Origin: Candidatus Anaerobiospirillum pullistercoris
GTDB lineage: Bacteria; Pseudomonadota; Gammaproteobacteria; Enterobacterales; Succinivibrionaceae
Direction: 5' to 3'
NCBI GenBank assembly: GCA_019114785.1
Contig: DXEV01000168.1
Coordinates: forward strand, 2,515-66,514
DNA: 64,000 nucleotides
Positions 20,318-36,173 of the stretch are shown one piece after another. Every line of letters starts with the position of its first letter. Position 1 is the first letter of the stretch. Below the pieces are notes generated by a model, which saw nothing but the letters and a program-made list of their open reading frames with translations, ran no database searches and was not told the DNA's origin. The position numbers and the translations under genes are program-made.

Positions 20318-20360
20318 AGAGGGTGAGCTCTCACAAGGGGCCCACCCTTTTTTGTTTTTG
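20318..20360 (+). terminator. Intrinsic terminator of the nqr operon
   Basis: AGGGTG (20320-20325) pairs with CACCCT (20343-20348). The loop contains the palindrome GTGAGCTCTCAC. TTTTTGTTTTTG follows. Confidence 0.7.
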
Positions 20361-20488
20361 TCTGCTGATGGCGAGAGCCTAGATGTTAAAATTAGTCGAC
20401 CCTAGGGGATGGATTGCCGCTATATTTCGGCTTTTTGCCCCTCCTTTCTTTTTGTCCTTTAGTCCTTGATGGTAGATGAGTCTTTCTC

Positions 20489-23400
20489 ATGGAAACAGCT
20501 GCAAAGATGGCTGAAAAAGCCAACATTAAGCAATTTTTGCAGGATTTTTGCGTCGAACCTCGCACACTCTCTGAGATCATGTTCAAGCTCTTCCATGATG
20601 TCTATCATGAGGATGAAGCTAAAACGAATGAGGCGCTTTCTGTGGTGCTGGAGTGCATTAAAGAGCGCGAGATCTTTGCTGATGTGACCTCCTGTATGGG
20701 CTTTAGAACTCATGACGACAATACGCGCTATCGCTCTCGTCAGACTAAAGGTGATGAAGAGGACAACCAAAACTCTTGGTCGCTCGAAGATTTCCGTGAG
20801 ATCTTAAAGTTCCTGTCCTTTTTCTATGATCTGGCCTCTGGCTCTTTTTCCTACGAGGTCATCAGCCCAGATTGCCTTTACGGTCGAAGCACGACCGCCA
20901 AGCGTAATACGCTCATTGAGCCTAATGGTTTTTCTCTTGTAGATACCGTCTCCTTACGCAATGACAACCCAGATGATGCCTCAAAGTTCTCTGGATTTGT
21001 GCGCTTAACCGATTCTGAGTTTGTGAATGCCATTCGTGCGCGGATTAACCAAAAAGACGAGGCCCGTATGGTGCTGGGGGCACCGCTCTTGGTGGTGGAC
21101 AATAAGCGACATGGCGGTTACGAGAACGGTAAGAGCCCATCAGGTTCTAAGCTGGCCCGCTTTAGCTTAGTGCCTGTGTTCTATTTTTCCCTGACTAAGG
21201 CTAAGTTCACCTCCGAGCGCACCTTGCAAAGTGGCGAGGTTATTGGCCCTTTCCTGAATGAGAGCTTTACCAGCCAGATGCTTAAGCTCTACGATGGCAA
21301 GCGTAGTAAACGTAATATTAAGCAGTTGCTTGCAGGTTTAGAGGCGGAGGCAGCAGCTCTGATCGAAAAGGAAAACGATCTGATGACGGTTTGGGAGGGC
21401 ATAAACCGCATTATCTTCACGTTTTTCTCTGATATCTGCTATGGGGCTGGTGGCGACCTTGCTATTGGCAAGATCGGTAAGTTTCAGAAGCTCACAAATC
21501 TCGATCATCTAAGCTCTTTGCTCGTGAATGCCGCCTTAGTGGCACCTGCAAGTGAGTCCAATTTCTCGATCAATACTTCACGGGACTTTAAGAAGATCCT
21601 CCAAGCCTCAGATGATGAGCTGCGCCAGAGTGCCCTGAGCTGCTTCTTTTCTGATCCTAAGACGGATTCCGTTCGAGCTAACAGCTTTAATGCCTTTGGC
21701 GTAGAGAGTCAGGCGGCTGTGGTCTATGACCTCAACGATTCCTATCCTTGTGATCAGGATCAGGCTCAAGCTGTGCGCTCCATGCTTAAGAATGACCTGA
21801 CGGTGCTGCAAGGCCCACCTGGTACCGGTAAGACCATGACTGTGGCTACGGCTGCTTACAACCACCTGTTGCGCGGGCAAAAGGTGTTGGTGACTTCCTA
21901 TAACCATGCGGCTATCGATGCCTTTTACGAGAAGTCGATCATTGAGTTACCTCAAGGCCGTTTTCGCTTTGCTAAGCTCTTGAAGAATCCTGATAACTCC
22001 ACTGCGCTGACTCTCAAGCAGTTAGCTCAAGATCTGGTGCAGCGCTCGAAGCAGGTGTCGGTGGAGCAGACGCAGGCTTTTGAGCATTTTGCGTCGTCGG
22101 TGGAGCAAAAAGAGCAAGAAATTGCGGGATTAGAGCGTCTTTTGCGTGAGTTTGATGTTGATTTTAATAAGAAGCAGTCTGAGCTCGACGAGCAAATGAT
22201 CTGGTTCTTGCGTCAATATGCCACTAACGCTGCTACTGCCGAGTTCCCTAAAGATGTGCACGAGTTTATTTACAAGCAGCTGCTAGAGCCGCTCTTTGGC
22301 CTGAAAAAGGAAAAGGAGAGCGAGAACTGGTCTTTTCATGTGCCTTTCTATACCGAGGCCAAGCAGCAAAAGCAGTATGAGGATGGGATTAACGATCTGA
22401 AGCAGAAACTAGCAGAGCATTCAGAGCTCGACGATACCTATCATCGTCAAGATGGATGTCTAAAGCATCTGCGCCAAAATGTTTACGATTTCCTCAAGGG
22501 TAACAAGCTTATTTACCGTCTGAAGCATGATCAGCTACTGGATATCTTGGATCGAGTGTTGGAGCTGACTCACTTTAAGTCTGCTCTCTGCCAGCAGAAG
22601 AAGGATTTAGGTCTTTCTGAGCCAGACAATCCTGTGCTGGATTTTGGTGAGATCCATGAGCGTATTGTGAATACACGTGCTCAGATCACCAATGATGTCA
22701 CTCAATGGATTGCTAAGATCTCGCCTCAGGAAGAGTTAGTGCCTGCCAAAGCAGGCGCAGGTGCAGGTGCTGGCGTAGGCGCTGGTGGTGTTGTTGGTGG
22801 TGCTAATGATGCTGAGATGAAGAGCCAATGGAAAGCGCCTGCTGTGACTTCGTTGGCAGTTGTGAGTCTGCTGCGTAATGTGCTCAAGCAAAAGGATGTG
22901 GATGAGCTGCTGCTTAAGCCAAAGTATGCGGCAGCAGTATTGGATTTCTTCCCAGTGAGCACTTGCACCTTGCTGAGTGTGGCTGGATCTTTGCCGCTGC
23001 AAAGCGCCATGTTTGATCTGGTGATTTTTGATGAGGCGGCGCAGTTTAACTTCATTGACGCCATACCGATCATGTTCCGTGCTAAGCGTGTGGCGGTGGT
23101 GGGTGATCCTAAGCAGTTAGCGCAGATTGGTTCTTATTCCCAGTCCTTAGTTCTCAAGATTGCTAAAGCCGTTGGTCTGCCAGATAGTCTGAGATTGCGT
23201 CTTGATTGCAATGCCTCGCTCTACGACTTTGCTAATCACAATTGCGCCACTAATATCAAGAAACAAGAACGTGAGCGTGATGGGGAGCTGCACGAGCTTA
23301 ATGGCCTTGATGGCCTTAATGGCTTTAATGGCAAGGATCTTGGCCAAGGTGAGCTCAAAGAGCTTATCTTGCGTCAGAATCGTCGTTCGGTGGGCGATAT

Positions 23401-24472
23401 TGTCAGCTATATTTCGCGCAGCTTCTATGAGGATCAACTGACATGTAAAACTGAGGTTAACCGTCCACAGTTAGAGGCTGAGCATAGGATCTTGCCAGAT
23501 ATGGAGATGGGCTTGCACTTTGTGCAGGTGCCTCACGATGAGCTGTTTAAAGATCCTCTCTCTCGCTCCTCTTTTTCGACTGTAGAAGCTCAGCGTACAC
23601 TGGAGCTTTTACAGCAGATTGTGGCCAGTGGCTATCGTGGCACTATTGGCGTGATTGCTCCATTTAGACGACAGATTGGTGAGCTGCAAATGCTGGTGCT
23701 CAGAGATCCAACGCTGCGTGCGCTCTACCAAGAGGGGGAGCGCTTGGTGATCGACACAGTGCACCGCTTCCAGGGTCGTGATTGCGATACCATCATCTAC
23801 AACCTCTGCTTAGCTGCAAGCGGTGGTAGCCAGTTTGCTCTTGATGAGAACATCACTAATGTGGCTTTGTCCCGTGCGCGTTATTATCTGTTTGTGGTGG
23901 GAGATCATCTGGCCTTACAGGTGCACGCCAATCAGTCTTTTGTCCGTAATTTGCTGCCATTTGTAGCTTCCCATAATATATCAGGACAAGCCGATGGCGA
24001 GCACAGTGCCGCGTTTGCCGCGTTTGCCGATGTTGCTAAGATCCGCCCATGCTTTGATAGAGTGCGTTTTGATACAGTCTGGGAGCGGATCCTTTTCGAC
24101 CAGCTACGGATTGAGCTGAGAAAAGATGAGTTCTTTGCGCTCTATGATATCCCTCACATGATCTTTACCCAGCTGCCGATTCTGAACTATCGATTAGATA
24201 TGGCCATGATCTGCGGTAATAGGGGCTTAGATATCGAGTGCGATGGCTCTCAGCATTACGTGAATTGGTTTAGCGCTGACAACTTTAAACTGGTGCCCTC
24301 AGATCTCAAACGTGAGGCTGACCTAAGGGCCAATGTTGTGAGTTTTGAGACTATCCGTTTCCGGAATATAGAGATTGAGAACAATCCTGAAGCTTGCGCC
24401 AAGAAGGTGTTAGAGCGCTTTAAGGCGATTGTGCGCGAGGTTCAAGCAGTAGCTCAATCTGCACAGGGATAG
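20489..24472 (+). CDS. SF1B (Upf1/DNA2-like, AAA_11/AAA_12) helicase fused to a C-terminal DUF559/Vsr-like endonuclease domain; unknown 430-aa N-terminal region
   Basis: Walker A is 'LQGPPGTGKT' (GPPGTGKT at nt 21812-21835, from aa 442). Walker B is 'VIFDEAAQ' (DEAAQ at nt 23030-23044, from aa 848). Further helicase motifs are 'VVGDPKQL', 'LRQNRRS', 'TVHRFQGRDCD' and 'NVALSRARYYLFVVGD'. The C-terminus 'GLDIECDGSQHY ... DLKREADLRANVVSFETIRFRN' fits the DUF559/Vsr-type nuclease pattern. About 400 aa of largely helical, partly low-complexity (AGAGAGAGVGAGG) sequence lie between motifs I and II. Confidence 0.85.
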   Translation: METAAKMAEKANIKQFLQDFCVEPRTLSEIMFKLFHDVYHEDEAKTNEALSVVLECIKEREIFADVTSCMGFRTHDDNTRYRSRQTKGDEEDNQNSWSLEDFREILKFLSFFYDLASGSFSYEVISPDCLYGRSTTAKRNTLIEPNGFSLVDTVSLRNDNPDDASKFSGFVRLTDSEFVNAIRARINQKDEARMVLGAPLLVVDNKRHGGYENGKSPSGSKLARFSLVPVFYFSLTKAKFTSERTLQSGEVIGPFLNESFTSQMLKLYDGKRSKRNIKQLLAGLEAEAAALIEKENDLMTVWEGINRIIFTFFSDICYGAGGDLAIGKIGKFQKLTNLDHLSSLLVNAALVAPASESNFSINTSRDFKKILQASDDELRQSALSCFFSDPKTDSVRANSFNAFGVESQAAVVYDLNDSYPCDQDQAQAVRSMLKNDLTVLQGPPGTGKTMTVATAAYNHLLRGQKVLVTSYNHAAIDAFYEKSIIELPQGRFRFAKLLKNPDNSTALTLKQLAQDLVQRSKQVSVEQTQAFEHFASSVEQKEQEIAGLERLLREFDVDFNKKQSELDEQMIWFLRQYATNAATAEFPKDVHEFIYKQLLEPLFGLKKEKESENWSFHVPFYTEAKQQKQYEDGINDLKQKLAEHSELDDTYHRQDGCLKHLRQNVYDFLKGNKLIYRLKHDQLLDILDRVLELTHFKSALCQQKKDLGLSEPDNPVLDFGEIHERIVNTRAQITNDVTQWIAKISPQEELVPAKAGAGAGAGVGAGGVVGGANDAEMKSQWKAPAVTSLAVVSLLRNVLKQKDVDELLLKPKYAAAVLDFFPVSTCTLLSVAGSLPLQSAMFDLVIFDEAAQFNFIDAIPIMFRAKRVAVVGDPKQLAQIGSYSQSLVLKIAKAVGLPDSLRLRLDCNASLYDFANHNCATNIKKQERERDGELHELNGLDGLNGFNGKDLGQGELKELILRQNRRSVGDIVSYISRSFYEDQLTCKTEVNRPQLEAEHRILPDMEMGLHFVQVPHDELFKDPLSRSSFSTVEAQRTLELLQQIVASGYRGTIGVIAPFRRQIGELQMLVLRDPTLRALYQEGERLVIDTVHRFQGRDCDTIIYNLCLAASGGSQFALDENITNVALSRARYYLFVVGDHLALQVHANQSFVRNLLPFVASHNISGQADGEHSAAFAAFADVAKIRPCFDRVRFDTVWERILFDQLRIELRKDEFFALYDIPHMIFTQLPILNYRLDMAMICGNRGLDIECDGSQHYVNWFSADNFKLVPSDLKREADLRANVVSFETIRFRNIEIENNPEACAKKVLERFKAIVREVQAVAQSAQG

Positions 24473-24565
24473 GTTTATACGGCATAAGTTTGTAGCTGAG
24501 CTGTTAAAGCTGTCGCTAGAGCTTAGGTTTGGGATAAGAGTTTTGGTAATTTTGCAGGAACACAG

Positions 24566-26605
24566 ATGGCTATGGAAGAACAAGCCCCAGACGTTGACGC
24601 AAAGGGAGCTCCTGATCAAGGTATAGACTCCAGTGGGCAGGAAAAGAGCGCTTATATTCATGAGGTTGCGCGCAAAGATAAGACGAGCCAAAAGATCAGT
24701 GTTTGGGCATTCTCGCTTATAGTTATCCTTTTCGCTTTTATCTTTGTCGGTTATGTGAGCTGGGTGCTGATAGTTAACTCAAGCCAAACAGATAAGATCC
24801 GTGAAGCCGTTGAGAATCATGCGGATTTGATTGCTTTGGTGACGCAGTCTAAGCAGGATATTGCCCATTTACGTAGTGACAAGCTGGAATTAGAACAAGA
24901 GGTATCTACTTTAACAGCTCAGCGCGACGATCTCGATATCAAGGTGAAAGAGCTTTTGGCCACCAAGCAAGAGATCGATAGCTACTATCAAGAGTATAAG
25001 CTGCGTAAGGACGCTCTGGAAAAGGAATATAGCCTACAAGAGGAAGGCTTAAAGCAGCTTAGTGATAAGCTCGTAGCTACGCAATCTGATGTGACCAAGG
25101 CTGAGGTGGAGCTGGCTGATCTACAAAGTAAGGTAGAGGCTAATCGCCAGTTGGAGCAGCAAAATCGTAAGTTACTCCAAGAGCAAGATAAGTTACAGCG
25201 ACAAAAGAGTCAGCTGGAAACTGAGATAGCTTCGCTGGAGACTACCGTGAAGCAGCATGAGGACACCCTGCGTGCGCTGGCTGCGCGTGAGCAAGAGGTG
25301 GGCTCCATTACTAATCAGCTCAAGGAATTAGTCGCAGGATACGGTGAGCAGGTGACGTCTTTGCTGGATAGCAGCACTAAGCTCAACTCTTTAGCCACAT
25401 CATTGGCGGCCCAAGAGCAAAGTGCCACGTCCTTTGTTAAGCAAGCCGATGCCATGACCAAGCAACTGGATACTATTGGCCAGACTTTAGGGCAGCATGG
25501 CTCCACCATCAATTCTGCTGCTACCAATATTAACGATGCCGTTGCTAAGACCTCTAATGCTATTCATGAGGCCGAGCAGGGACTCAATGCAACGTTTACC
25601 AAGGTTACAGAGTCGTTAGGTCAATCCGAGGAGAAGATGAATGCTGCATTGTCTAGTACATCTAATGCCTTAGAGAGTGCAGGGGATAGTGTGACTAAAG
25701 CAGTGACCCAAGCTACCCAAAGCTTGAGCAATGCTACGGAAAAGGCTGTGACTTCTGTGAACACTGCCGAGAAGAGTGTCACCAGTGCCATCACCAAGAC
25801 TACGACAGCTTTAGCCTCAGCTGAGAAGAGCATAACGGATGTTGCCTCTAATGCAGTGACCCAAGCTACCCAGAGCTTTAGCGCCGCTACGGAAAAGGCA
25901 GTGGCCTCTGTGAATACAGCCGAGAAGAGTGTCATCGATGCTTTCGCTAAGACTACGACTGCGCTGAATTCAGCTGAGCAGAACCTAACGGCGGCTGCCT
26001 CGCAGACCGCAACTGCTATGCAAAGCTTTAGCGCCACTACGGAAAAGGCAGTGACCTCAGTGAACACTGCCGAGAAGAGTGTCACCGATGCCTTCGCTAA
26101 GACTACGACAGCTTTAGCTTCAGCAGAGAAGAACATAACTGATGTTGCCTCTACTGCTGTGACCCAAGCTACCCAGAGCTTTAGCGCCGCTACGGAAAAG
26201 GCAGTAGCCTCTGTGAATACGGCCGAGAAGAGTGTCACCGATACCTTCACCAAGACCACGACTGCGCTGAATTTAGCTGAGCAGAACCTGACGGCTGCAG
26301 CCTCACAGACAGCAATTGCTATGAGTCAAGCCCAAGAAAACGTAAGTTTAGCTTTGACTCAGTCTGTGTCAAATCTCAATGAGCAAGTACAACAGCTTAG
26401 AGCCTCTTTAATGCAGGTTCAGGGCGACTTACAGCAATTTATCCAAGGTCTAGAAACTCAGCAGGCTGGTGCTAATGAGGCTGTGTCATCGCAGTTGTCT
26501 CAGCTGCAAACTCAGCTACAGGAGCTACAGCAGAGCCTTGAGCAGGTGAGCCGTCAGGCCGTGCAGGTGGACGAGGCTACTGTAGCCGTTCCAGAAGCAA
26601 ATTAA
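24566..26605 (+). CDS. Membrane-anchored coiled-coil protein with tandem 50-51-aa repeats
   Basis: One predicted TM ('ISVWAFSLIVILFAFIFVGYVSWVLIV') lies near the N-terminus. About 200 aa of heptad-like K/E/Q/L-rich sequence follow. Then come 4-5 tandem Ala/Thr/Ser-rich repeats ('ATEKAV(T/A)SVNTAEKSV.DAF.KTTTAL.SAE'), then a Q/L-rich tail. AGGAA lies 7 nt upstream of the ATG. I recognise no enzymatic motif. Confidence 0.75.
   Translation: MAMEEQAPDVDAKGAPDQGIDSSGQEKSAYIHEVARKDKTSQKISVWAFSLIVILFAFIFVGYVSWVLIVNSSQTDKIREAVENHADLIALVTQSKQDIAHLRSDKLELEQEVSTLTAQRDDLDIKVKELLATKQEIDSYYQEYKLRKDALEKEYSLQEEGLKQLSDKLVATQSDVTKAEVELADLQSKVEANRQLEQQNRKLLQEQDKLQRQKSQLETEIASLETTVKQHEDTLRALAAREQEVGSITNQLKELVAGYGEQVTSLLDSSTKLNSLATSLAAQEQSATSFVKQADAMTKQLDTIGQTLGQHGSTINSAATNINDAVAKTSNAIHEAEQGLNATFTKVTESLGQSEEKMNAALSSTSNALESAGDSVTKAVTQATQSLSNATEKAVTSVNTAEKSVTSAITKTTTALASAEKSITDVASNAVTQATQSFSAATEKAVASVNTAEKSVIDAFAKTTTALNSAEQNLTAAASQTATAMQSFSATTEKAVTSVNTAEKSVTDAFAKTTTALASAEKNITDVASTAVTQATQSFSAATEKAVASVNTAEKSVTDTFTKTTTALNLAEQNLTAAASQTAIAMSQAQENVSLALTQSVSNLNEQVQQLRASLMQVQGDLQQFIQGLETQQAGANEAVSSQLSQLQTQLQELQQSLEQVSRQAVQVDEATVAVPEAN
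25690..26320. repeat. Tandem 150/153-bp coding repeats (303-bp super-repeat) inside the 24566-26605 gene
   Basis: The (A/T)TEK repeat anchor, keyed on its conserved ACGGAAAAGGC string, recurs with Thr codons at 25736, 25889, 26039 and 26192 (spacings 153, 150, 153 bp). Flanking sequence is near-identical. Confidence 0.85.
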
Positions 26606-26711
26606 GAGTCTTAATCTGCTTCCAGCGCCCGCCCCTCACCAGTCCCAGCTGCTATGGGTGAGACTATAGAAGTGTGAGGAGCGGGTCAGTTGAAGTGGTA
26701 GGAGCGGACTG

Positions 26712-29700
26712 TTAGCTTTCGTCTTTTCCTTCCTCATCTAGGCCTTGCAGCTCAGACATAATGTTAGGGTTACTACCCTCTTTGCGCAGGTACTTCTTAA
26801 CCTCTGGTAAGAGAATATTAAGTTTTTCCTCGACAAAAGAGTGGAACCGCTCTGTAAAGACATAAGATATACGTCTTCCTTTGTTGTAGGGCTCTCGCTG
26901 CTGAATTTGCTGATCGAGTCGTTGGTATGTGCTCAGTGTGTCGTCTAGCAGTTGTTCTATCTCAACAATCTCTGCTTCGTCGATGAAGTTTAGTTCTTCC
27001 TTACGGTAAAGCAGAGAGTACAGCATTACTCTAAGCGACAAGCTGAGTGAACTGCTTCCGATCACTGATTGAGCTTTTATGATTTTTTCACCTAGCTCTG
27101 GGTTATGCACTGTAGCTCGGATTTTATCTTTACTGCTGTCGAGGAGAGCGCGTGCAAACTCAGCCCCCATGCTGAAGTCTTTGGATGACGGGGAAAAGAC
27201 CTGAGGGTGATTTTCGATCAGTAGCAAGGCACCATTCATGTGCCTAGTCTTAAGCGGTGCCATTTGAAGCAGCCATTGACAGCACTTGTTAACCGCTTCC
27301 TTAGAATCAGGCACGAACATACAGTAGCGATGCATTAGCTTGCTCTTGTCTAGAAAATTAGTGCCTATCCTAAAGGCCTGCTCCACGGCTAGAGCTACTG
27401 TATTTGCGATTCCTTCAAGATCAGGGTTGCCAAAAGGCTTAGCTTGAGGGAATGGTAGACATTGGTCGATGTTATCGCAGAATGCTTTAAAGTCACCTTT
27501 TCTGATGTTGGCAAGCAAGAGGGCATGATACATTCTATGGTCTTGCAATAGACGAGCATGGATCTTCTGCTTCATTGTTTGGGAGCCGAATTCACCATTG
27601 TAATACACCAGATCTTGCTGTTTGCGCCCGCCACGGAAAATGATATCCTCTTGCGTTAACTTCTGTTGCCTACGTTGGATTGTAGTAGCTAATTGACCGC
27701 GTGGTTTTAATAATGGTGGGTAGACGCGAGGTAGCTGTGGCAGCTTCTCCGTAAAATCGACTTTTTTGCTTGGATCAAACACTTGCACCTCGCCATGTTG
27801 AGGTAACACACTGCTGACTTCACTGGCGTCAGGATCTGGCTTAATGTGGATTTTGGCGTAGCCAGATAAGGCGCGTTGTTCCACCCAAACTATAACTGGC
27901 TCATCATTATGTGCTTTGCGGCCGGAGGCAAAGGTCAAGGTAGCCTTTTGTACTGATACTGGTGGACTTTGTAAGGTAAAAGGTGTTTCTGTGGCAAGAT
28001 TGATACTATCGTCGTTAAAAGCAGTATCGGTGGAAACGTAGAGCTCAACGTGATCGCTGCCTTTGTTAATAGCTAGTCCTACCTTAGAGCCGGTGATATT
28101 TTGTGTTGGTGCGATGGTGTCATCGTTAATCAGAACCTGCTCTTTGTACTCGGTGTGCTCCTTATTACTGATAACCATTGACAGCTTGGTTAAGCGATCA
28201 AGGTAGGTAGGATGTGTCTGGGGGGCATTGAGGTTGAGGCGTTCTTGGAATAGGAATCCACCTAAAGCCATGTGTTGCCACGCGGTGTTGTGGCGCGATA
28301 ATCTCAATGGTAGAGGATGGGCCTGCATGCTTGCAAGCGAGTCAATGGTTTGGGAATTGCCATAGAGCATTGGGCCAGTAATTAATAGGCACTCGTGTGG
28401 CTCGCTATAGTCTAGATCGTCGAGCTTGTGATCAATCATCACCTTGCGGATCCACTCAGTCATACCCATATAGGCGTCATATGGTATAAATTGCTCAGTA
28501 TCACATCCGTATAACTCATAGAATGATTGAATAGCTAATGAACGAGAGCGCACTTGGGCTCGTTGTTTATCTGTCAATAGCGTATGAATGTGGCACCATT
28601 TATCGATGCTGTGTTTTTGCGGTTGAGGTACACGTAAGACGCGTAAGTGTTCGCTGGTGTCAGATTGTCCCCATGCCTCTGGGAATTGATAGATCACTTG
28701 CGCTATGACCGCATTCTGTAGTTGCTTAAGGATCTGAACGTCGTTCTGCCTTTGAGCAGAAGATAAGCTCTCTATGAGCTTCGTGCTTAAAAACGTGTAA
28801 GCATAGCTGATAGCGTATTGCAAGAAACTGGTACCAATGGCGCAATTCTTATAGACCGATTCACGGCGAATAGGGATGACATAGCTCTGATCAGTGTGTA
28901 GCTTTAGATCATAAGTGGATAGATCGATACTGTCAGGGCCAATGTAGAGCACATGCACGGTAGCAGTATCTTTGTCCTCAGGGGTGTTGCCTTGTGATTC
29001 TTGGGGATGGCTGCTTACATGCTCCACTAGACGCAGCTCTGATTGCGAGCCTGAGTTACTGCTATCTAAACCAGCACGCATAGCCTCAATTTTTGCTCGT
29101 ATTGATTCAGGTGTTTGCTTAGAGTCTTCAGCCTCAAGTTGTTTGTCAAAATCAGCAAAGATATCATTGTTTTGGCTTAGATGCTCGTAAAAGCTAGTAG
29201 CTTCTTGGGATGTGGCCACCTTGGCGCGAGACTCTTCGGCCATATTGGCAATAGATAGGTGAGAGGCAGGCTTAGCTGTACCCATAATAGTGGCAAAGCT
29301 AGGTTCTGGAACAATGTCCTGATCCGAGTAAGCATTGAAGTGGCCGAGCAAGGTAGCAATGGAGCGCCAAAGTAATTGCACCTCAAAGCCAGAGAATGCG
29401 TTGATTAAGGCTTGCTGCTCTGCCTCATCGAAATTATCAGGAATGCAGATGACAAGTTGGCAGTGAGACTGTAGATAAGCCTTATTGGTACGTGTGATTT
29501 TGGCAGGGAGTCTATCCATAGCCTCTGTATCGTTTACAGGGGCGGGCGCTGTATTTGCGGTAGCACGTTTGTGCTCGTCAAAGGTATCGCAGGCTAGCTG
29601 GATGATGTACTTGGCAAGCGAGTTAGCAGCATGTTGCTTATTTTCATCTCGTGGTTGTAGGTGCTTGAGCTGTTGCCAGAGTAAGGCTACTGGGATTCGG

Positions 29701-29897
29701 CTGCTATAGTGGTCATTGTCGATAAGGCCAATACCAGTGCGCTCATACAGTGCATCTTGGCCATACATGTAGAGCTTATTTTCACGGTCTTCAATGACCA
29801 CCGAAGGTAAGTTGCTGTCCTGCATATATACCTTGCCATCAATGACAATGGTGTCAGCAAAGCCGAAAGCACTGATGCTGATAATAGACTTGGCCAT
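26712..29897 (-). CDS. Hsp70/actin-fold protein (NBD plus SBD-beta-like region) with degenerate nucleotide-binding motifs and ~330-aa helical C-terminal domain
   Basis: By-eye alignment to the Hsp70 motifs follows.
- 'IISISAFGFADTIVIDG...NLPSVVIEDRENKLYMYGQDA' corresponds to phosphate-1 plus 'TPSVVAF..G..A'.
- 'LVICIPDNFDEAEQQALINAFSGFEVQLLWRSIATLLGH' corresponds to 'VITVPAYFND.QRQATKDAG.IAGL.V.RIINEPTAAALAY'.
- 'VLYIGPDSIDLSTYDL' corresponds to 'V.DLGGGTFDVSIL'.
- 'LLITGPMLYGN' corresponds to 'ILVGG.TR.P'.
- 'MALGGFLFQERL' corresponds to 'AVA.GAA.QA..L'.
The start is coupled to the upstream gene: a 3-nt gap, with AGGAG 8 nt upstream of the ATG. Confidence 0.6.
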   Translation of the reverse strand: MAKSIISISAFGFADTIVIDGKVYMQDSNLPSVVIEDRENKLYMYGQDALYERTGIGLIDNDHYSSRIPVALLWQQLKHLQPRDENKQHAANSLAKYIIQLACDTFDEHKRATANTAPAPVNDTEAMDRLPAKITRTNKAYLQSHCQLVICIPDNFDEAEQQALINAFSGFEVQLLWRSIATLLGHFNAYSDQDIVPEPSFATIMGTAKPASHLSIANMAEESRAKVATSQEATSFYEHLSQNNDIFADFDKQLEAEDSKQTPESIRAKIEAMRAGLDSSNSGSQSELRLVEHVSSHPQESQGNTPEDKDTATVHVLYIGPDSIDLSTYDLKLHTDQSYVIPIRRESVYKNCAIGTSFLQYAISYAYTFLSTKLIESLSSAQRQNDVQILKQLQNAVIAQVIYQFPEAWGQSDTSEHLRVLRVPQPQKHSIDKWCHIHTLLTDKQRAQVRSRSLAIQSFYELYGCDTEQFIPYDAYMGMTEWIRKVMIDHKLDDLDYSEPHECLLITGPMLYGNSQTIDSLASMQAHPLPLRLSRHNTAWQHMALGGFLFQERLNLNAPQTHPTYLDRLTKLSMVISNKEHTEYKEQVLINDDTIAPTQNITGSKVGLAINKGSDHVELYVSTDTAFNDDSINLATETPFTLQSPPVSVQKATLTFASGRKAHNDEPVIVWVEQRALSGYAKIHIKPDPDASEVSSVLPQHGEVQVFDPSKKVDFTEKLPQLPRVYPPLLKPRGQLATTIQRRQQKLTQEDIIFRGGRKQQDLVYYNGEFGSQTMKQKIHARLLQDHRMYHALLLANIRKGDFKAFCDNIDQCLPFPQAKPFGNPDLEGIANTVALAVEQAFRIGTNFLDKSKLMHRYCMFVPDSKEAVNKCCQWLLQMAPLKTRHMNGALLLIENHPQVFSPSSKDFSMGAEFARALLDSSKDKIRATVHNPELGEKIIKAQSVIGSSSLSLSLRVMLYSLLYRKEELNFIDEAEIVEIEQLLDDTLSTYQRLDQQIQQREPYNKGRRISYVFTERFHSFVEEKLNILLPEVKKYLRKEGSNPNIMSELQGLDEEGKDES

Positions 29898-29900
29898 GTT

Positions 29901-31961
29901 TTAGCTCTCCTGAGTTGTGATGTCGTGGATGATGGAAGAGATCATTACCTCCATGGACTCTAAGCACTGTAACCACTCATCAGGACTGACAGTGATAGTA
30001 CTCATGAAGCATGAAGGGCAGACTTTATTGCGGGTGAGATTGCGGTTATTGGTGCCCGCAATGACTTTGATACCTATGTTGTTGTTGTATTTCCCCGCAT
30101 TATAGGTTTGCTTGTCTGCTTGAGAGAGGGACTGAGGTTTGGTGGTGCAAATGGTGTTAATCTTGTATGTTGGTGCGTTGGCTCTATACGTGACCATGTT
30201 AGCCTCACGCTGCACACTGAAGTTTTTTAGCTCCTTTAAGTCCCAGAACTGCTCAGTACTGACTAAGAAGCAAGGATATATAGGGATGGCAGGGGAACTA
30301 GATGCTCTATTTTCGAGCAGATCTTTAAACATAGCAGGAAGCTTGAGAAGTAAGCTATCACGCTCAGATTCGTCACGTAAAGCACAGTGCATAGAATACA
30401 GTGGAACTAAGACGTGTTGTACGGGCTCCCTTAGATCTTGGATGGAAGAGACCTTGGTGAATAACAAGAAAGATGGGGCCGTTGGCATGAGTTGCAATGT
30501 CACTTGTGGCCATAATTGGGTAATAGTGTTAGGAAGCCCCATGGAGTTGAGCTTTTCTGAGCCGAAAGTGATCACTTCTACAGTGTAAACGGAGCTAGGG
30601 CTTTGAATTAAAAAAGGCCCAGCTTCGCAACCTAACTTGATACGGTGGCCGTTGATCTGCTCGCGGCTAATATGTACGTAGGACTTGCCGATGGTATTGA
30701 TCTGATACCCGTACTGTAAGGGCCATTGAGAGCTATCGGCTAGATCACAGAGTGCTGCATTGATGAGTAGATCGCAGATGTCCTGAAATAGGTTCTGTTG
30801 GCAGTAGATAGTCTTATCCAGATCTCGTTTCTCGTGGATGAGATCGAGGTACATTTGCCAGATCTTTTTGTAGTCAGGATCTTTTTGCAGCACAAAGTTT
30901 GGCTTAGGCAGCGATGGCTGACGAGGCACAGCGGCCAAGGGCGATTTCTGAGAGAGCTCTTGGCAGCGCTGCTTGAAGATATTCATCTGATGAGTGATAG
31001 AGGAGTTAGCCAAAGCGCGGTTGCGGTTGCTCTTATCCTTGATCTCAAGGATGTATTGGGTAGATTTAGTGATACAGCGCTCTAAGAAATCCTTAAGCAC
31101 ACGGTTTTCTAGTAGATTGTAGGTTTCTTCTTTAGCCAGACCTAAGAAACGCATTTTGTTCTTTTGGGCCTTTTCTCGCAGAGTATCGCCTTCGAGGCGC
31201 AATAAGTACTCAAGGCACTTACCGTCCATTGCGTTGATGCGCTCTACAGGCAACAGCTTGCGGGTGTTGATTAGGCTTTTGCGTAGCTTGGCAGCAATAC
31301 GGCTTAGTGGATCTGAGGCCTTTTCGGCGATAGCAAGAATACGTGATCTTGAGATTTGCTCGTCATTACCACAGTACTGACAGATCAGTCGATTAAGATC
31401 GGCAAAGCGCACCATCTGTACATCGGAAAAGTCGCTTGTTTGGTTGTAGTTGATGAGATAGTCAAAAAATGCGAGCCAGCGTTCGAGGTACTGAAAGTAA
31501 TGTGCCTCGGAATTATGGTCATTTTTGTCAGAGCTAACCAGCACAAAGTCGATATTTCCTATGTTTTGCCCATTATAGTGGATAGACAAAGGTAAGGTGA
31601 CTGCCGTTGTGGTTGGTGTGGAAGGCTCTGCCGTAAGCAGAGTTTGCTGAATGCTCTTTTGCAGCTTATAAGGTAAGCTACTGACGGAGATTAAAGATGG
31701 TAGCGTGTAGATGCCAATATTGAGAGCTTCTCCGGCATAGGCGTAGATAAAAGCTTTTTTCTTGAACTGGTAACTTTGGCCATCGCGCTCATAGCAGAGG
31801 GTTAGGGGTAATTCACTGCTATAGCTCTGCTCCCGAGTAGAGATGGGTAATATTAAGTAGGCACAAGTCACTGCACCATGAGTACTTGGGACAATGACTT
31901 TTTTGTCAGTGTCTCGATCGACTTTTAGTAGAGGAAAATCACTGAGAAAACCTGCTGTCAT
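29901..31961 (-). CDS. McrC/DUF2357-like partner protein (nuclease core not recognisable by eye)
   Basis: 'EETYNLLENRVLKDFLERC' matches the conserved (D/E)T.ENRfLK helix of McrC/DUF2357 proteins. 'PNFVLQKDPDYKKIWQMYLDLI' and 'NLFQDICDLLINAAL' resemble the segment that precedes the PD-(D/E)xK core in that family. It lies immediately downstream of the McrB-like gene. Confidence 0.55.
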   Translation of the reverse strand: MTAGFLSDFPLLKVDRDTDKKVIVPSTHGAVTCAYLILPISTREQSYSSELPLTLCYERDGQSYQFKKKAFIYAYAGEALNIGIYTLPSLISVSSLPYKLQKSIQQTLLTAEPSTPTTTAVTLPLSIHYNGQNIGNIDFVLVSSDKNDHNSEAHYFQYLERWLAFFDYLINYNQTSDFSDVQMVRFADLNRLICQYCGNDEQISRSRILAIAEKASDPLSRIAAKLRKSLINTRKLLPVERINAMDGKCLEYLLRLEGDTLREKAQKNKMRFLGLAKEETYNLLENRVLKDFLERCITKSTQYILEIKDKSNRNRALANSSITHQMNIFKQRCQELSQKSPLAAVPRQPSLPKPNFVLQKDPDYKKIWQMYLDLIHEKRDLDKTIYCQQNLFQDICDLLINAALCDLADSSQWPLQYGYQINTIGKSYVHISREQINGHRIKLGCEAGPFLIQSPSSVYTVEVITFGSEKLNSMGLPNTITQLWPQVTLQLMPTAPSFLLFTKVSSIQDLREPVQHVLVPLYSMHCALRDESERDSLLLKLPAMFKDLLENRASSSPAIPIYPCFLVSTEQFWDLKELKNFSVQREANMVTYRANAPTYKINTICTTKPQSLSQADKQTYNAGKYNNNIGIKVIAGTNNRNLTRNKVCPSCFMSTITVSPDEWLQCLESMEVMISSIIHDITTQES

Positions 31962-32054
31962 GGCTTCACATCTTGTCAGAAGAGTAGGGGCGGGCGCTGC
32001 CTAACGCTAACACTAGGCAGTGCCGTGGAGATGGTAGTAGAAAACACCAAAGAG

Positions 32055-35012
32055 TTAAGCTTGATCAATGGAGCGGCTGACGCCTCGCCATAAGAACATG
32101 CCGTTAGTTTCGTAGTTATCTTTGGCAATCTTAAAGGCTTTGATCAATTCTTCATCATGGGTGTCTCTAATCTCGTTGTCAATAGAGCTCAGACAGGTAT
32201 CGGATTTTTCGTTCTGCTCCAAACCAGCCAGTTTTGGAATGATTTTCATCTCGATTTGATCTGCCAGTGCTATCAAAGCGCTTTCTTCAGGATTAGCTGA
32301 GCTCTTAATGTCAGGGTACATTTGGATGTAATGGGTAATGGAATTGTTGACACGATAGCCAAAGGCTTTGCCCACACTATCCAAGGCGTTATTTAACGTG
32401 TTGATCTTTGAGCGCAGAGCTTCAGGGAAGTTATTTGGGAAGTTTTCTTGGCTACACCAGTCGTTGAAAGTATCGGCATTGACATAGATCTGTGACACTT
32501 TATCGTAGCGGATGTTATCCTCAAAGCTTTTTGGCTTACCGAAGTGCAGCACGTTGGCACGATCTAGCACTTTGTCGGATAGTGAGTATGTCGACTCATC
32601 GTCGTTCATGGTGCCGACAAATACAACATTGGAGCCAACGAAGAAGTCACGGCTATTAAGTTGGGTACCGATAGAGATCTTGCTCTTATCCTCAGGCTGA
32701 TTACGGTCAGTGCCGCGCAATTCCAGTTTTGAGAGGAACTCCGAGAAGTAGTACTCTACGCGGGCAAGGTTCATCTCATCGAGTATCACCATCATCATTG
32801 GAGAGTCGCTGTTGTTGCGGATCTGGTGGAAATAATACAAGGCCTTTACCAGTTCTGTTGGCTGATAGCGCTTCTCGAGGAAGTTATAGAAGCCAAGTAG
32901 GTCGTCCTTAGAGTCCCAACGTGGTTGTACGGCTACGTGCTCGCTGTAGAAATTGAAGAACTTAGCGTACTGCAGTGCCAGTTGGGTTTTACCTGTACCA
33001 CTTAAGCCTGCTAACACAGAGATCGGGTTAATGTTCTGCACCTTAAGTGACGTGTGGAATGCCTTAAGAGTACGAGGGGAATAGAAGAACCCTTCACCCT
33101 TTAAGTAGTCTTGGAATAGCTCTAAAGCGGTACCTTCGTCTTTTACCTCTGTGCCATCGAAGCGCTTTAAAAAATTCTCGATAGCAGCCGGTGTTTGCTC
33201 TAACTCCTCATAGGCAGTATTACTTGCTTCGACGGTGTGGGCACTCTTGGCTTTTTCCTCCAGAGCGGCTACTTCTTGCTGAAGCTGAGTTTTTTGTGCC
33301 GTGAGTTGGCTCTGAGTCGCCAGCTCCGAGGCTAGGTTTTGCATGGATTGCGATAAGGTGTCTTTGAGGTCGTCAAAGGCTTGCCCCAAGGTCTCGCTTA
33401 GCAGATTAGTACTTTGCTGTTCATTGACTTGCGATTGCAGGTCGTCAAGCTCATCCTGCTTTTTGGAGATCTGTCGTTTGAGGTTATCCAACTTGTTATT
33501 GAGCACTCTTTGTTGGTCATTGAGCTCATTCTGTCCGCTGATGCTAAAGATAGCATTGGACAGAGCCTCACTGATCTGTGAGGAGCTGCGCTGTTCATCG
33601 ACTTGAGATTGTAGGTCATCAAGTTCATCTTGCTTTTTGGAGATCTGGCGCTTGAGGTCATCTAACTTGTTATTGAGCACTCTTTGTTGGTCATTGAGCT
33701 CATTCTGTCCGTTGATGCTGGAGATAGCATTAGACAGAGCCTCACTGATCTGCGAAGAGCTGCGCTGTTCATCTAATTGAGCTTTTAGATCGTTAAGTTC
33801 TTTTTGTAGTGCTTTGGCGGCGCTGGCTTGATCGCTCTTAGCTTTTTCCAGAGCAAATACTTCTTGTTTGAGCTGATTTTTTTGCGCCGTAAGCAGGCTT
33901 TGCTCCCCTAGCTCCGAGGCTAGGTTTTGCATGGATTGCGACAGGGTGTCTTTAAGGTCATCGAAGGTTTGACCCAAGGTTTCGCTCAGCAGATTGTTGC
34001 TTTGCTGCTCATTGACTTGAGATTGCAAGTCGTCAAGTTCTTTTTGCTTGGCTGCTACATTATTTTTTAGCTCATTAAGCTGAGAAGTCAGCTTTCTGAA
34101 GTCGTTGGTATCCGACAGCTGCTCAAAAGCAGTGTTTAAGGCGTCTGAGAGCTGATTTTGATTGCTCTTATTGCTGATTTCTTCCTTAAGCTCGCTTAGC
34201 TTCTCTTCTTTTTCCTGTACTTGCTGGGACAGTTGTTCTAGCTTGGAGCTAAGCTCTTGTTCTTGCTGAGCACGGATCGCTTGCTCATTAAAGGAGGTGA
34301 AAGCCTTATTGATGGCGTCGTTGAGCTTACCTGTGTTGAGCTCTTTTTCCTGCTCTATCAGTCGAGCGGCGTTAACATCGTACTGCTTGCGCAGATCCTC
34401 AATCTCTTGTTGCAGTTTTTGGCTTTCAGACTTTAAATTCGAGTTGTCTGCGAGCTCAGAGAACATCTGGTTAAGAGAGTCCTTGGCTATACCACTGCTG
34501 AGCTTCTCGTTGACTTGATCAGAGAGCTCCTTGAGACGCTCTTCCTTGTCATTGATCTTTTGATCGAGCGCGTCTAGCTGTTCTTGCTGGTGGTTATTGA
34601 TAAAGTCCTTTAAGGCTTCACTTTTAGAGAGCTCACGGTCGAGATCCTGCAATTGCTGGAGCTTACCTTGGTACTCGCTGCCTAAGGCATTGAGCTGACC
34701 TTTTACCTGATCAATAGTCTCCTTATTGGCGGCAAATTGCTCATACTCACTTTTGATGCGGGCGGTCTGCTTTTCCACATCTTCCTTGAGACTTTGCTTT
34801 TCCTTTAGCTCAATTTCGAGATTTTGGACTTTTTTGAGCAGATCTTCATGATCGCCTTTAAGTTGTAGTCTGTAATCAAAGTGGGCGTTGATTCGGAAGT
34901 AGAAAAAGGCAAGAATAATGGAAAGGATAACGATAGCAACCGCACCTATTGCAAGGAAAAAGGAAGTGAGGTTGGTGGAAAGTATTGCGGACAAATCAGG
35001 TAAGTCAGACAT
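32055..35012 (-). CDS. McrB-family AAA+ GTPase/ATPase with N-terminal transmembrane anchor and ~600-aa coiled coil
   Basis: The TM segment is 'LTSFFLAIGAVAIVILSIILAFFYF' (aa 15-39). Heptad-rich K/E/Q/L sequence runs to about aa 600. The Walker A is 'LAGLSGTGKTQLALQYAKF' (nt 32985-33008, aa 669). 'QPRWDSKDDLLGFYN', 'MMVILDEMNLARVEYYFSEFLSKLE' and 'VFVGTMNDDESTYSLSDKVLDRANVLHF' form the McrB/AAA_5 signature set. Confidence 0.85.
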   Translation of the reverse strand: MSDLPDLSAILSTNLTSFFLAIGAVAIVILSIILAFFYFRINAHFDYRLQLKGDHEDLLKKVQNLEIELKEKQSLKEDVEKQTARIKSEYEQFAANKETIDQVKGQLNALGSEYQGKLQQLQDLDRELSKSEALKDFINNHQQEQLDALDQKINDKEERLKELSDQVNEKLSSGIAKDSLNQMFSELADNSNLKSESQKLQQEIEDLRKQYDVNAARLIEQEKELNTGKLNDAINKAFTSFNEQAIRAQQEQELSSKLEQLSQQVQEKEEKLSELKEEISNKSNQNQLSDALNTAFEQLSDTNDFRKLTSQLNELKNNVAAKQKELDDLQSQVNEQQSNNLLSETLGQTFDDLKDTLSQSMQNLASELGEQSLLTAQKNQLKQEVFALEKAKSDQASAAKALQKELNDLKAQLDEQRSSSQISEALSNAISSINGQNELNDQQRVLNNKLDDLKRQISKKQDELDDLQSQVDEQRSSSQISEALSNAIFSISGQNELNDQQRVLNNKLDNLKRQISKKQDELDDLQSQVNEQQSTNLLSETLGQAFDDLKDTLSQSMQNLASELATQSQLTAQKTQLQQEVAALEEKAKSAHTVEASNTAYEELEQTPAAIENFLKRFDGTEVKDEGTALELFQDYLKGEGFFYSPRTLKAFHTSLKVQNINPISVLAGLSGTGKTQLALQYAKFFNFYSEHVAVQPRWDSKDDLLGFYNFLEKRYQPTELVKALYYFHQIRNNSDSPMMMVILDEMNLARVEYYFSEFLSKLELRGTDRNQPEDKSKISIGTQLNSRDFFVGSNVVFVGTMNDDESTYSLSDKVLDRANVLHFGKPKSFEDNIRYDKVSQIYVNADTFNDWCSQENFPNNFPEALRSKINTLNNALDSVGKAFGYRVNNSITHYIQMYPDIKSSANPEESALIALADQIEMKIIPKLAGLEQNEKSDTCLSSIDNEIRDTHDEELIKAFKIAKDNYETNGMFLWRGVSRSIDQA
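33290..34025. repeat. Near-identical coding repeats in the coiled-coil region of the McrB-like gene
   Basis: A tandem 174-bp (58-aa) unit occurs twice; GAGCACTCTTTGTTGGTCATTGAGCTCATTCTGTCCG starts at 33501 and 33675. It is flanked by a ~130-bp dispersed repeat; GCTAGGTTTTGCATGGATTGCGA starts at 33331 and 33919, 588 bp apart. Confidence 0.85.
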
Positions 35013-35717
35013 AGCAGTGAGCGTAAGTTGGTTGTAAGCAGCAGCGCGCTGCTGGAGTGGTGTTGGTGTCGGTTAATGCCCGCCCGCTAAGGGTAGCAGG
35101 GCGGTAACAATATGGTAGCTGTTAAAAACTGGTATTGGACTTAAAGTGTGGATCCTTGTTGGAGTAGGTTTCAGGTAAGGACTTTGGATCGTACATGCAG
35201 GCTAAGCGGTGTGCTTTGCCAAGCTGCATTAAAGGGATTTCTAGTCGCTATTTTTCGCCCATTTTAATCCCAATAGAGGTGTTTGTAACTAGTGCTAAGA
35301 CACAGATGTGATAACGGCAAGCTTCAATATATGGGCTGTGTGTTCGGCAAGCGAGCGCTGGCGCGGAACAACATTGAGGTTTTGGCGGTGCCTGTTGGGT
35401 GGCGTGATTTTGGGCGGATGTTATGAGGTTGGGCAATGGTGCAGGGAGTAGTGACCGCGAGGGGCGAGCCTTGTGGTGGCTAGGGGCGGGCGCTTGGACT
35501 GTGTTTTTGGGGTGGGCGCTTGAGCCCAAGGGGCGGGCGCTGTGGCTGGCGCTGAGCCACGGCGGCAGCTTAATTCTTCAAAGCGTGACCTGTGCTCAAC
35601 TATTGCCCTCATTTTTTTGTTACGATAGCTGGTATGTAAGAGAGTCCTCTGGCCTGTGTCTCTTTGTCTTGCCTTGAGGCTACCTCTTGCTGGTTTTCCA
35701 CGTTGAGGAGCAATTTA

Positions 35718-36173
35718 ATGTTAGCTACTTCGCTTGAGCTCGCTACTAAATACGACTATTTAGCCGAAAAGTTCCAGAAGAGTATCGAGTGGTTAAAGAC
35801 CCACGATGCCACCAAGCTGGACAACGGCCGCTATGATATCTGCGACGGTGCCTTTGCCTTAGTCCAACGCTATGCCACCGTTCCTTTTGAGCAGATCCAG
35901 TTCGAGGCCCATAACGACTACTTCGATATCCAGTACTTAGCTCAAGGTATCGAGACCTTTAATGTGTGCTTACGTAAAGACTGCCAAGTCACTAAGGAAG
36001 ATGCTGCTTCTGATATGGTCTATCTGAGCACCCCTGAGGTCTACACCTCCGTGACTTTAAAGCCAGGTGAGTTTGCCATCGTTCCTCCTGAGGAGGGCCA
36101 CCAACCACGTATCGCTTATCAAGGCAAGAGCGTGGATGTGGTTAAGGTGGTAGTCAAAGTTGCTGTAGAATAG
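35718..36173 (+). CDS. nanQ: YhcH/YjgK/YiaL (DUF386) family protein, NanQ-like sialic-acid anomerase/accessory protein
   Basis: ATG at 35718 follows GAGGAG. It is a 151-aa cupin-like protein ('GRYDICDGAFALVQRY', 'HNDYFDIQYL', 'FAIVPPEEGHQP'). It sits next to the nan genes. Confidence 0.75.
   Translation: MLATSLELATKYDYLAEKFQKSIEWLKTHDATKLDNGRYDICDGAFALVQRYATVPFEQIQFEAHNDYFDIQYLAQGIETFNVCLRKDCQVTKEDAASDMVYLSTPEVYTSVTLKPGEFAIVPPEEGHQPRIAYQGKSVDVVKVVVKVAVE

Follow-up and report, generated by a model that had tools for sequence, protein, structure and literature searches.

The junction between nqrF and nanQ in Candidatus Anaerobiospirillum pullistercoris (GenBank assembly GCA_019114785.1, contig DXEV01000168.1) is occupied by an island of five open reading frames (ORFs) that is very probably an acquired Type III-B member of the coiled-coil nuclease tandems (CoCoNuTs). 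All positions refer to the window, the whole 64-kb stretch of this contig that was analysed. The five ORFs are arranged as two convergent units, a plus-strand pair spanning 20489-26605 and a minus-strand trio spanning 35012-26712. The assignment to III-B is based on gene content and domain layout, with which every feature that gave a clear result is in agreement, and a role of the island in defence, presumably against phages or mobile elements, is likely. The subtype itself is already known; what is added here is dual membrane anchoring as a hallmark of III-B. The genes of the island and its two neighbours are as follows.

19019-20248, plus strand: nqrF, left flank, the last gene in common with the empty site of the sister species (NCBIfam TIGR01941, E=7e-211)
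20489-24472, plus strand: cnuH, 1327 aa
24566-26605, plus strand: cnuA, 679 aa
26712-29897, minus strand: cnuD, 1061 aa
29901-31961, minus strand: cnuC, 686 aa, 93 bp downstream of cnuB
32055-35012, minus strand: cnuB, 985 aa
about 35718-36173, plus strand: nanQ (N-acetylneuraminate anomerase), right flank (NCBIfam NF040884, 1.2e-25)

Gene content and subtype

As published, the III-B subtype has a Upf1-like CnuH in which Walker A is followed by a large helical insertion, the N-terminus carries a Sul7s-like winged helix-turn-helix and an OB fold, and a Vsr-like nuclease is directly fused, without CnuE; a separate CnuA that is a coiled coil alone; a CnuB whose N-terminal part is a coiled coil and nothing else; a CnuC composed of an Ig-like domain, DUF2357, and an inactivated PD-(D/E)xK nuclease; and a separate CnuD with Hsp70-like nucleotide-binding and substrate-binding domains (NBD and SBD) followed by HEAT-like repeats, with no TerY-P genes (Bell et al., eLife 2024, PMC11090510). 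The accession numbers given there fit the order H-A-B-C-D, and III-B is described as mainly alphaproteobacterial. In the same study, NxD in place of NxxD, usually followed by E or D, defines the GTPase branch that holds the CoCoNuTs.

There is neither a TerY-P triad nor a sixth gene or CnuE at the island, which consists of five ORFs only and is flanked by nqr and sialic-acid genes. All other ORFs of at least 80 aa inside 20489-35012 overlap one of the five genes. The initial annotation of this DNA had named the CoCoNuT branch of McrBC as the closest class, and this naming is borne out by the NxD motif, the coiled coil, and the DUF2357 partner, all of which are present. It also considered that no published subtype could be assigned and that the combination of a helicase-nuclease with an Hsp70-like gene may be new. 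Neither of these novelty claims is supported, because every feature of the published III-B definition that gave a clear result is found here; the gene set and domain layout match Type III-B, and the combination in question is itself the published definition of this subtype.

Domain architecture of the five proteins

CnuH is predicted to be a Upf1-like superfamily 1 (SF1) helicase fused to a C-terminal Vsr/DUF559-type nuclease. The helicase matches Pfam AAA_11 (6.6e-22) and AAA_12 (1.7e-25), and its top PDB matches are UPF1, NAM7, SMUBP-2, SEN1, and DNA2. In PADLOC, MkoA (9e-52) was matched, as were MkoC and Hhe, although the PADLOC and NCBIfam similarities are confined to the helicase core and all lie far below the family cut-offs. 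The features of CnuH are listed below.

21812-21835, plus strand: Walker A, GPPGTGKT, residues 442-449 (read from the sequence)
23018-23044, plus strand: Walker B, LVIFDEAAQ, residues 844-852 (read from the sequence)
24170-24418, plus strand: Vsr/DUF559-like nuclease domain, residues 1228-1310 (Pfam DUF559, E=5.6e-5, 23.4 bits against a cutoff of 20.6)

The two Walker motifs are separated by approximately 400 residues, indicating a large insertion within the first RecA-like domain, and the same spacing is seen in the orthologs of loci L087, L088, and L090. The nuclease domain carries the motifs YRLD (1234-1237) and IECDGxxH (1249-1256); the pattern RxD...IE.(D/N)G..H is kept in four CnuH orthologs and in a Rhizobium copy, and the orthologs match DUF559 or MTES_1575. 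No match to this domain was obtained in the PDB, and residues 1-420 gave no sequence-profile match. Low-complexity segments were also observed in CnuH: a 9-nt repeat in four copies at 23297-23332, encoding LNGLDGLNGFNG, lies between Walker B and AAA_12, and a Gly/Ala run (AGAGAGAGVGAGGVVGG) lies at about 22760-22800, within the insert between Walker A and Walker B.

CnuB is composed of a transmembrane (TM) helix, a coiled coil of about 600 aa, and a C-terminal McrB-like AAA+ GTPase, the coiled coil being read from SMC/Rad50/ASRP-type matches over residues ~50-620. The GTPase is matched by Pfam AAA_5 (7e-8) and by PADLOC PDC-M26A (6.5e-45), and the G, T, N, and D of G-T-x-N-x-D in the sensor-1 region are invariant in 22 homologs; two homologs bear the source name 'McrB'. 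That CnuB is McrB-like is suggested by AAA_5 and the pattern of its motifs, by the DUF2357 gene next to it, and by the published phylogeny. In a BLAST ranking, the closest relatives of CnuB sit in the same five-gene context; such ranking of the CnuB domains cannot tell subtypes apart, since identity of the domain is 42-47% throughout the clade. CnuA matches solely coiled coils of the SMC/Rad50/ZorA type and has no Pfam domain, and the place of its gene beside cnuH is conserved across loci. The features of the two coiled-coil proteins are as follows, hydrophobicity being given as the maximum of a 19-residue Kyte-Doolittle (KD) window.

24695-24775, plus strand: TM helix of CnuA, residues 44-70 (KD maximum 2.81)
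25695-26294, plus strand: tandem repeat in cnuA, 153 nt (51 aa) in 3.9 copies (Tandem Repeats Finder)
32595-32612, minus strand: T-M-N-D-D-E of CnuB, residues 801-806 (N803, D805, E806), the NxD(E) variant of the McrB NxxD motif
32985-33008, minus strand: Walker A of CnuB, GLSGTGKT, residues 669-676, invariant in the homolog alignment
34896-34970, minus strand: TM helix of CnuB, residues 15-39 (KD maximum 2.98; no K/R before the helix and three after it)

An in-frame tandem duplication was seen in cnuB as well (174 nt in 2.2 copies, 33416-33800). The in-frame duplications of both coiled-coil genes appear to be recent, and coiled-coil length appears to evolve by gain and loss of repeats.

CnuC is homologous to McrC and combines an N-terminal beta-sandwich with DUF2357 and a degenerate nuclease region; its sequence is 100% identical to that of an NCBI protein of Candidatus A. 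pullistercoris. The Pfam match to DUF2357 (PF09823) has an E-value of 1.5e-12 and 47.8 bits against a cutoff of 23.3. An AlphaFold2 model (pTM 0.75) shows the N-terminal beta-sandwich, with beta strands over residues 5-143, then a helical bundle and a C-terminal alpha/beta region (420-686). When this model was searched with Foldseek, only beta-sandwich matches were returned and no McrC or nuclease fold; the match to the TEAD YAP-binding domain, which we take to be an Ig-like beta-sandwich, covers ~130 columns (prob ~0.9, E ~1e-2), the aligned part of CnuC not being reported.

30849-31307, minus strand: DUF2357 match of CnuC, residues 219-371 (Pfam)
30570-30650, minus strand: degenerate PD-(D/E)xK position of CnuC, G-P-F (448-450) and E-V-I (462-464), on two adjacent beta-strands

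The strands 450-453 and 458-465 are present in the model. G448, P449, F450, and E462 are invariant in an alignment of 25 CnuC sequences, in which the family reads G-P-F...E-V-[IVL], and no conserved D or K was found at the catalytic positions among these 25 members. With PF...EVI in place of PD...(D/E)xK, two of the three catalytic residues of CnuC are therefore missing.

CnuD is read as an Hsp70-like NBD/SBD protein with a helical-repeat domain behind it; its Hsp70-like character was reached from both structure and sequence profiles. The top three Foldseek matches of its model are mortalin, DnaK, and Ssz1 (E 1.6-3.1e-3, ~770-806 columns), and the remainder are TPR/ARM/HEAT repeats. A family profile broadened to 51 sequences gave Ssz1 Hsp70 as its top four PDB matches (E 0.014-0.024), the one at E=0.014 being on the NBD core. 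Only this broadened profile reached Ssz1; the close-family profile found nothing in the PDB. Pfam showed no Hsp70 match in any of 25 CnuD family members and 10 distant relatives, and the retrieved loci held no DnaK gene for the Hsp70 profile-profile comparison set. The family is small, with 95 cluster representatives among 1.84 billion proteins.

29340-29456, minus strand: Hsp70 NBD core motif region of CnuD, residues 148-186, LVICIPDNFDEAEQQAL...LLWRSIATLLGH, profile-aligned to Ssz1 'VITIPTNFTEKQKAAL...LISEPAAAVLAY'
26736-27581, minus strand: C-terminal helical-repeat domain of CnuD, residues 773-1054 (AlphaFold2 block-mean confidence, pLDDT, mostly 80-95; TPR/ARM/HEAT by Foldseek)

Collectively, the roles that had been guessed for all five proteins in the initial annotation, the Hsp70-like one included, agree with the Pfam, PADLOC, Foldseek, and profile matches.

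Insertion site and variation within the species

In a scan of species-representative genomes with NqrF, the nearest relative was Anaerobiospirillum succiniciproducens DSM 6400 (locus L007), at 91% identity. In this genome, nanQ lies 230 bp after nqrF, the genes behind it (ROK kinase, symporter, nanA, and nanE) keep the order that they have in the window, and none of the five island genes is found at the nqrF-nanQ junction. Nucleotide homology between the two stops at position 20249 of the window and restarts at 35706. Because of this syntenic empty site, the block can be regarded as having been inserted, with a length of about 15.4 kb; that the sister species lost it precisely is less likely. 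The accessory island proposed initially for this junction is thereby supported. The absence of apbE and nqrM, which had been offered as an argument for insertion, has no bearing on it, since both genes are missing at the empty site too.

The composition of the island differs only slightly from that of its surroundings. The five genes have a GC content of 47.1%, compared to 50.6% for 25 flanking genes (51.6% and 55.6%, respectively, at third codon positions), and 1-kb windows range over 44-50% in the island and 47-53% in the flanks, so that the earlier contrast of 37-47% against 52-62% was overstated. A shift in codon choice had also been claimed. It is seen in the codon fractions of island and flanks for TTA (0.19 vs 0.37), CGT (0.36 vs 0.53), AGA (0.10 vs 0.03), and CTT (0.14 vs 0.08), but not for TTG, whose fractions are alike (0.12 and 0.11), and the codon-usage distances of individual island genes overlap those of core genes.

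Within the species, five contigs with an identical NqrF are informative, and in each of them cnuH comes directly downstream of nqrF. The comparison of this junction in related genomes, which had been suggested as a test of variable presence, thus shows the island to be absent in the sister species but not variably present within the species. Its sequence is more variable than its presence: conspecific nucleotide identity is 97.5-99% for the nqr genes, compared to 85-96% for cnuH, cnuA, cnuD, and cnuC. For contigs L001-L004, whose NqrF is 100% identical, the difference from the window amounts to 4-15% over the island and 1-2.5% over nqr. Such divergence confined to the island suggests allelic replacement or diversifying selection, and its high level is a pattern typical of conflict-driven diversification or allelic exchange. 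CnuA is 571, 628, or 679 aa long among contigs with identical NqrF. A shorter CnuH allele of 1294 aa was observed in contigs L003 and L004.

Occurrence of the five genes in other genomes

The five genes were found together in 11 further loci that were examined, where their genomic surroundings are unrelated and three gene orders occur; L087, L088/L089, and L090-L096 are the loci with the co-occurring set. In Anaerobiospirillum thomasii, they form a colinear operon H-A-B-C-D adjoining upp, and in another Succinivibrionaceae-type lineage they show the convergent arrangement of the window, but between aroQ and glyA. Distant relatives, whose CnuD is ~17-19% identical, have the colinear order H-A-B-C-D, and the sets of the nearest CnuB relatives read A-B-C-D-H and H-A-B-C-D. 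In most complete loci, the genes make up a single colinear operon, often with overlapping reading frames. The copy in L092 sits beside GmrSD and DUF1156 genes, and on a mobilizable plasmid of Rhizobium leguminosarum (L096) the set H-A-B-C-D has a Shedu nuclease on one side and a BPTD_3080 restriction endonuclease on the other. The three different sites in one family, the carriage on a plasmid, and the defence-island neighbours support the view of a mobile immune module. The proposal of a single five-gene system within the CoCoNuT branch is upheld as well, all five being together in every complete locus examined.

In L094, a canonical McrBC pair (Pfam McrBC, McrB_lid, and AAA_5; 1445-5234, minus strand) was observed ~1.3 kb from the III-B-like five-gene set; this fits the published co-occurrence of NxD and NxxD systems in the same genomes (Bell et al., eLife 2024, PMC11090510). 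A phage origin of the island was also considered and rejected: PHROGs gave only matches to the helicase core and to coiled coils (tape-measure-like), and a search of a phage collection returned two weak CnuB matches and nothing else.

Membrane anchors as a feature of Type III-B

The initial annotation had pointed to TM anchors on both coiled-coil proteins as possibly new. The anchors are real, with KD maxima of 2.8-3.0, but they are not special to this locus and occur throughout III-B. In each of the ten other curated loci, the alphaproteobacterial plasmid copy included, CnuA and CnuB again have TM helices. In addition, a metagenome scan with a profile of the CnuB GTPase yielded 80 loci, which were annotated by hidden Markov models built from the alignments of this analysis. 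Of these, 51 are III-B-like, that is, they have a separate CnuC of ~500-590 aa and a separate CnuD of ~780-920 aa, and in 41 of the 51 the N-terminal helix of CnuB scores at least 1.8. Of the remaining III-B-like CnuB proteins, four are incomplete, and in six the N-terminus is hydrophobic but more weakly so. In 26 of the 51 loci, the ORF directly upstream of cnuB is unannotated and has an N-terminal TM helix. The other layout, that of III-A, was found in 29 of the 80 loci and consists of a kinase, CnuH, a winged helix-turn-helix (wHTH) protein, CnuB, and then a CnuCD of 1000-1377 aa with a cold-shock domain, as confirmed by Pfam on L162; a TM helix on CnuB is seen in none of these 29 loci. Anchoring of both CnuA and CnuB by N-terminal TM helices is therefore a hallmark of the III-B architecture that is missing in III-A. 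In the main text of Bell et al. (PMC11090510), TM helices are mentioned for CoCoPALM, EssC, and ShdA only and not for III-B. A subgroup of III-B-like CnuB proteins (L104, L105, L109, and L122) was seen to share a conserved, weakly hydrophobic start (MDPFITQFxxWxSAL..., KD 1.1-1.5) that is not a clear TM helix and may be an amphipathic or peripheral membrane anchor.

The charges around the helices give some information on topology. For CnuB, K and R residues average 0.33 on the N-terminal side of the helix and 3.07 on the C-terminal side, which has the higher number in 29 of 30 loci; this strong positive-inside signal places the GTPase in the cytoplasm (N-out/C-in). For CnuA, K and R average 2.7 on the N-terminal side versus 2.3 on the C-terminal side, net charge is +1.5 versus -1.0, and the N-terminal side is higher in 20 of 26 cases. 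An N-in/C-out orientation of CnuA with a periplasmic coiled coil is possible on this weak charge signal. It would lead to III-B as a membrane-embedded surveillance machine in which the anchored coiled coils of CnuA and CnuB lie on opposite sides of the inner membrane, a picture that we hold to be unlikely. If it were true, envelope events such as phage adsorption and genome injection could be sensed outside and relayed via the TM helices to the cytoplasmic GTPase and helicase-nuclease.

Functional interpretation and alternative explanations

Obs, a CoCoNuT of Type II, gives Pseudomonas aeruginosa protection from RNA phages and from one DNA phage (bioRxiv 10.64898/2026.04.06.716636), and an immune role for the class is therefore supported. 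Several points weigh against the reading of the island as an acquired III-B defence system. Presence/absence variation within the species was not seen among the five informative contigs. The window holds no mobility genes, and no target-site repeats were found at the island borders. Neither the CnuB GTPase domain nor its 22-sequence profile matched McrB in the PDB. The N-terminal half of the CnuD model is of low confidence, and the statistics of the Hsp70-like assignment are marginal (E about 1e-2 to 1e-3), although comparable to the published ones. Moreover, the defence role is extrapolated from genomic context and from the Type II relative, and no report of an experimental test of any Type III-B system was found in the literature.

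In McrBC, McrC plugs into the McrB ring. From this established biology and from proposals in Bell et al., a working mechanism could be outlined, the steps of which are less certain than the defence role itself. CnuB would reside in the inner membrane with its N-terminus outside and its coiled coil and GTPase ring in the cytoplasm, and CnuC would enter this ring through DUF2357 and stimulate GTP hydrolysis, contributing binding rather than cleavage. CnuD, with its degenerate Hsp70-like part and helical-repeat platform, might serve as a sensor or adaptor having weak or no ATPase activity; what it recognises could be RNA that is foreign or aberrant, or else a state of the ribosome or of the nascent chain. 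CnuH, as the sole component with an intact nuclease motif, would translocate 5'-3' on RNA or single-stranded DNA and cut it. CnuA, the other coiled coil anchored in the membrane, might be a scaffold or regulator of the assembly, and tethering to the membrane would bring the machine to the point of entry of phage nucleic acid into the cell.

A different function could be considered for the same proteins. Upf1-like helicases and Ssz1-like Hsp70s work in RNA surveillance and at ribosomes, and CnuH and CnuD resemble these, so that the island might encode a non-immune, membrane-associated machine for RNA or translation quality control that has become fixed in the species. The block is carried at the same place by all five informative contigs with identical NqrF, its composition is near that of the host, and it has no mobility genes, all of which speaks for such a machine. 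However, it is absent at the syntenic site of the sister species, occupies three different sites among Anaerobiospirillum-type genomes, and has copies on a plasmid and within defence islands; its divergence within the species is several-fold above that of neighbouring genes, as is typical of conflict genes, and the CnuD family is small. Quality control is thus an improbable function for the island.

The arrangement in the window could also suggest two independent neighbours rather than one system, namely a Mokosh- or Hhe-like helicase-nuclease with a coiled-coil partner and a McrBC-like pair with an Hsp70-like accessory. All five genes are together in every complete locus examined, mostly as a single colinear operon with often overlapping reading frames, which leaves this explanation with hardly any probability, even though the two units converge on a terminator-like hairpin and CnuH alone matches PADLOC MkoA, MkoC, and Hhe. 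It is also very unlikely that the island represents a new CoCoNuT subtype, marked by its membrane anchors and by a helicase-nuclease accompanied by an Hsp70-like gene. The fusion of helicase and Vsr nuclease, the domain-less CnuA, the separate CnuD, and the absence of TerY-P are the published III-B definition, and the nearest CnuB relatives sit in colinear five-gene sets. The anchors are found also in the alphaproteobacterial Rhizobium plasmid copy, and their presence in 41 of the 51 III-B-like metagenomic loci makes them a class feature and not a subtype marker. What speaks for novelty is that III-B TM helices go unmentioned in the main text of Bell et al., that III-B is mainly alphaproteobacterial according to these authors while the host here is a gammaproteobacterium, and that the gene order is convergent and not colinear.

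Borders and neighbouring genes

The remaining features of the island borders are given below.

20335-20350, plus strand: terminator-like hairpin 3' of nqrF (consensus scan)
26600-26715, strand not assigned: stable hairpin between the convergent units (minimum free energy -46.2 kcal/mol, z = -3.5)
35013-35717, strand not assigned: right-hand intergenic region of 705 bp, with the right boundary of the insert somewhere inside it (homology to A. succiniciproducens restarts at 35706)

A. succiniciproducens carries a terminator-like hairpin of its own after nqrF. The hairpin at 26600-26715, in the 106-bp spacer between the two units, is a candidate bidirectional terminator. The intergenic regions at the two boundaries have no common repeat above chance, with one inverted 10-mer found and 0.25 shared 10-mers expected. 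The right-hand intergenic region contains two short ORFs (84 and 93 aa), and Rfam gave no match in this region or at the island borders. The sequence GGGG[CT]GGGCGCT occurs three times in it, at 35483-35543 with a spacing of 21-26 bp; the distance to cnuB, upstream of which they lie, is ~470-530 bp, and they are also ~175 bp upstream of nanQ. These repeats could be operator sites for either gene.

The left flank of the island is the nqrA-F operon. On the right, nanQ is followed by a sialic-acid catabolism cluster (ROK kinase, sodium:solute symporter, nanA, nanE, and mutarotase). The stretch 35718-44945 makes up a complete sialic-acid utilisation cluster, comprising nanQ, the ROK kinase, the sodium:solute symporter, nanA, nanE, an OmpL-like porin, and the NanM mutarotase, which fits a gut-mucus lifestyle. 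No tRNA was found anywhere in the window. Upstream of the nqr operon, at 10861-12612 on the plus strand, lies a gene for a 583-aa protein with AAA-ATPase_like (PF09820) and PDDEXK_9 domains, which is present in contig L002 and has other genes in its place in the conspecific L001. The A. thomasii CoCoNuT is flanked by three paralogs of this kind (L087, 12836-17018 and 21994-22628). This family may be a second variable, conflict-related gene family in Anaerobiospirillum.

Significance

CoCoNuTs are a large, computationally defined branch of McrBC that is predicted to target RNA, and experimental support exists for a Type II example only. The locus described here is a clean candidate for testing III-B, as it has five genes, no accessory modules, and natural allelic variants, and the borders of the insert are confined to the two flanking intergenic regions by the empty site in the cultured A. 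succiniciproducens DSM 6400. The anchors on CnuA and CnuB, conserved in III-B and absent in III-A, provide a simple diagnostic of the subtype. They also point to action at the inner membrane, a location that is left out of account in current models of these systems.

Comparison with known systems

With published Type III-B CoCoNuTs, the island shares CnuH, CnuA, CnuB, CnuC, and a separate CnuD, and like them it has neither a TerY-P triad nor a HEPN domain. It differs in its two convergent units, compared to the usual colinear order H-A-B-C-D, in its host, a gut gammaproteobacterium (Succinivibrionaceae) and not an alphaproteobacterium, and in its unusually long coiled coils with recent tandem repeats; the TM helices of CnuA and CnuB probably reflect a gap in the published description and not a difference between systems. 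Type III-A has in common with the island the NxD motif and N-terminal coiled coil of CnuB, the Upf1-like nature of CnuH, and an Hsp70-like module that includes helical repeats. In III-A, however, the Hsp70-like module is fused to CnuC (CnuCD, 1000-1377 aa, with a cold-shock domain), the wHTH-HEPN effector CnuE is separate, TerY-P kinase genes are present, and CnuB has no TM helix.

Canonical McrBC, the Type IV restriction system of E. coli, likewise pairs an AAA+ GTPase with an adjacent DUF2357-containing McrC partner. Compared to it, the island has NxD and not NxxD, lacks a DNA-reading N-terminal domain, and has an inactivated McrC nuclease, three extra components, and membrane anchoring, and its CnuB family profile finds no solved McrB. 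CoCoPALM (PMC11090510) also fuses an NxD GTPase to an N-terminal TM and coiled-coil segment (FtsB-like), but it is accompanied by SipA-like signal peptidase or pilus-assembly genes and is without CnuH, CnuA, and CnuD, whereas no such peptidase is found here. With Mokosh (MkoA/MkoC) and Hhe, the island has in common the Upf1-like SF1 helicase core (PADLOC MkoA, 9e-52); the similarity stops at this core, and the matches are far below the family cut-offs.

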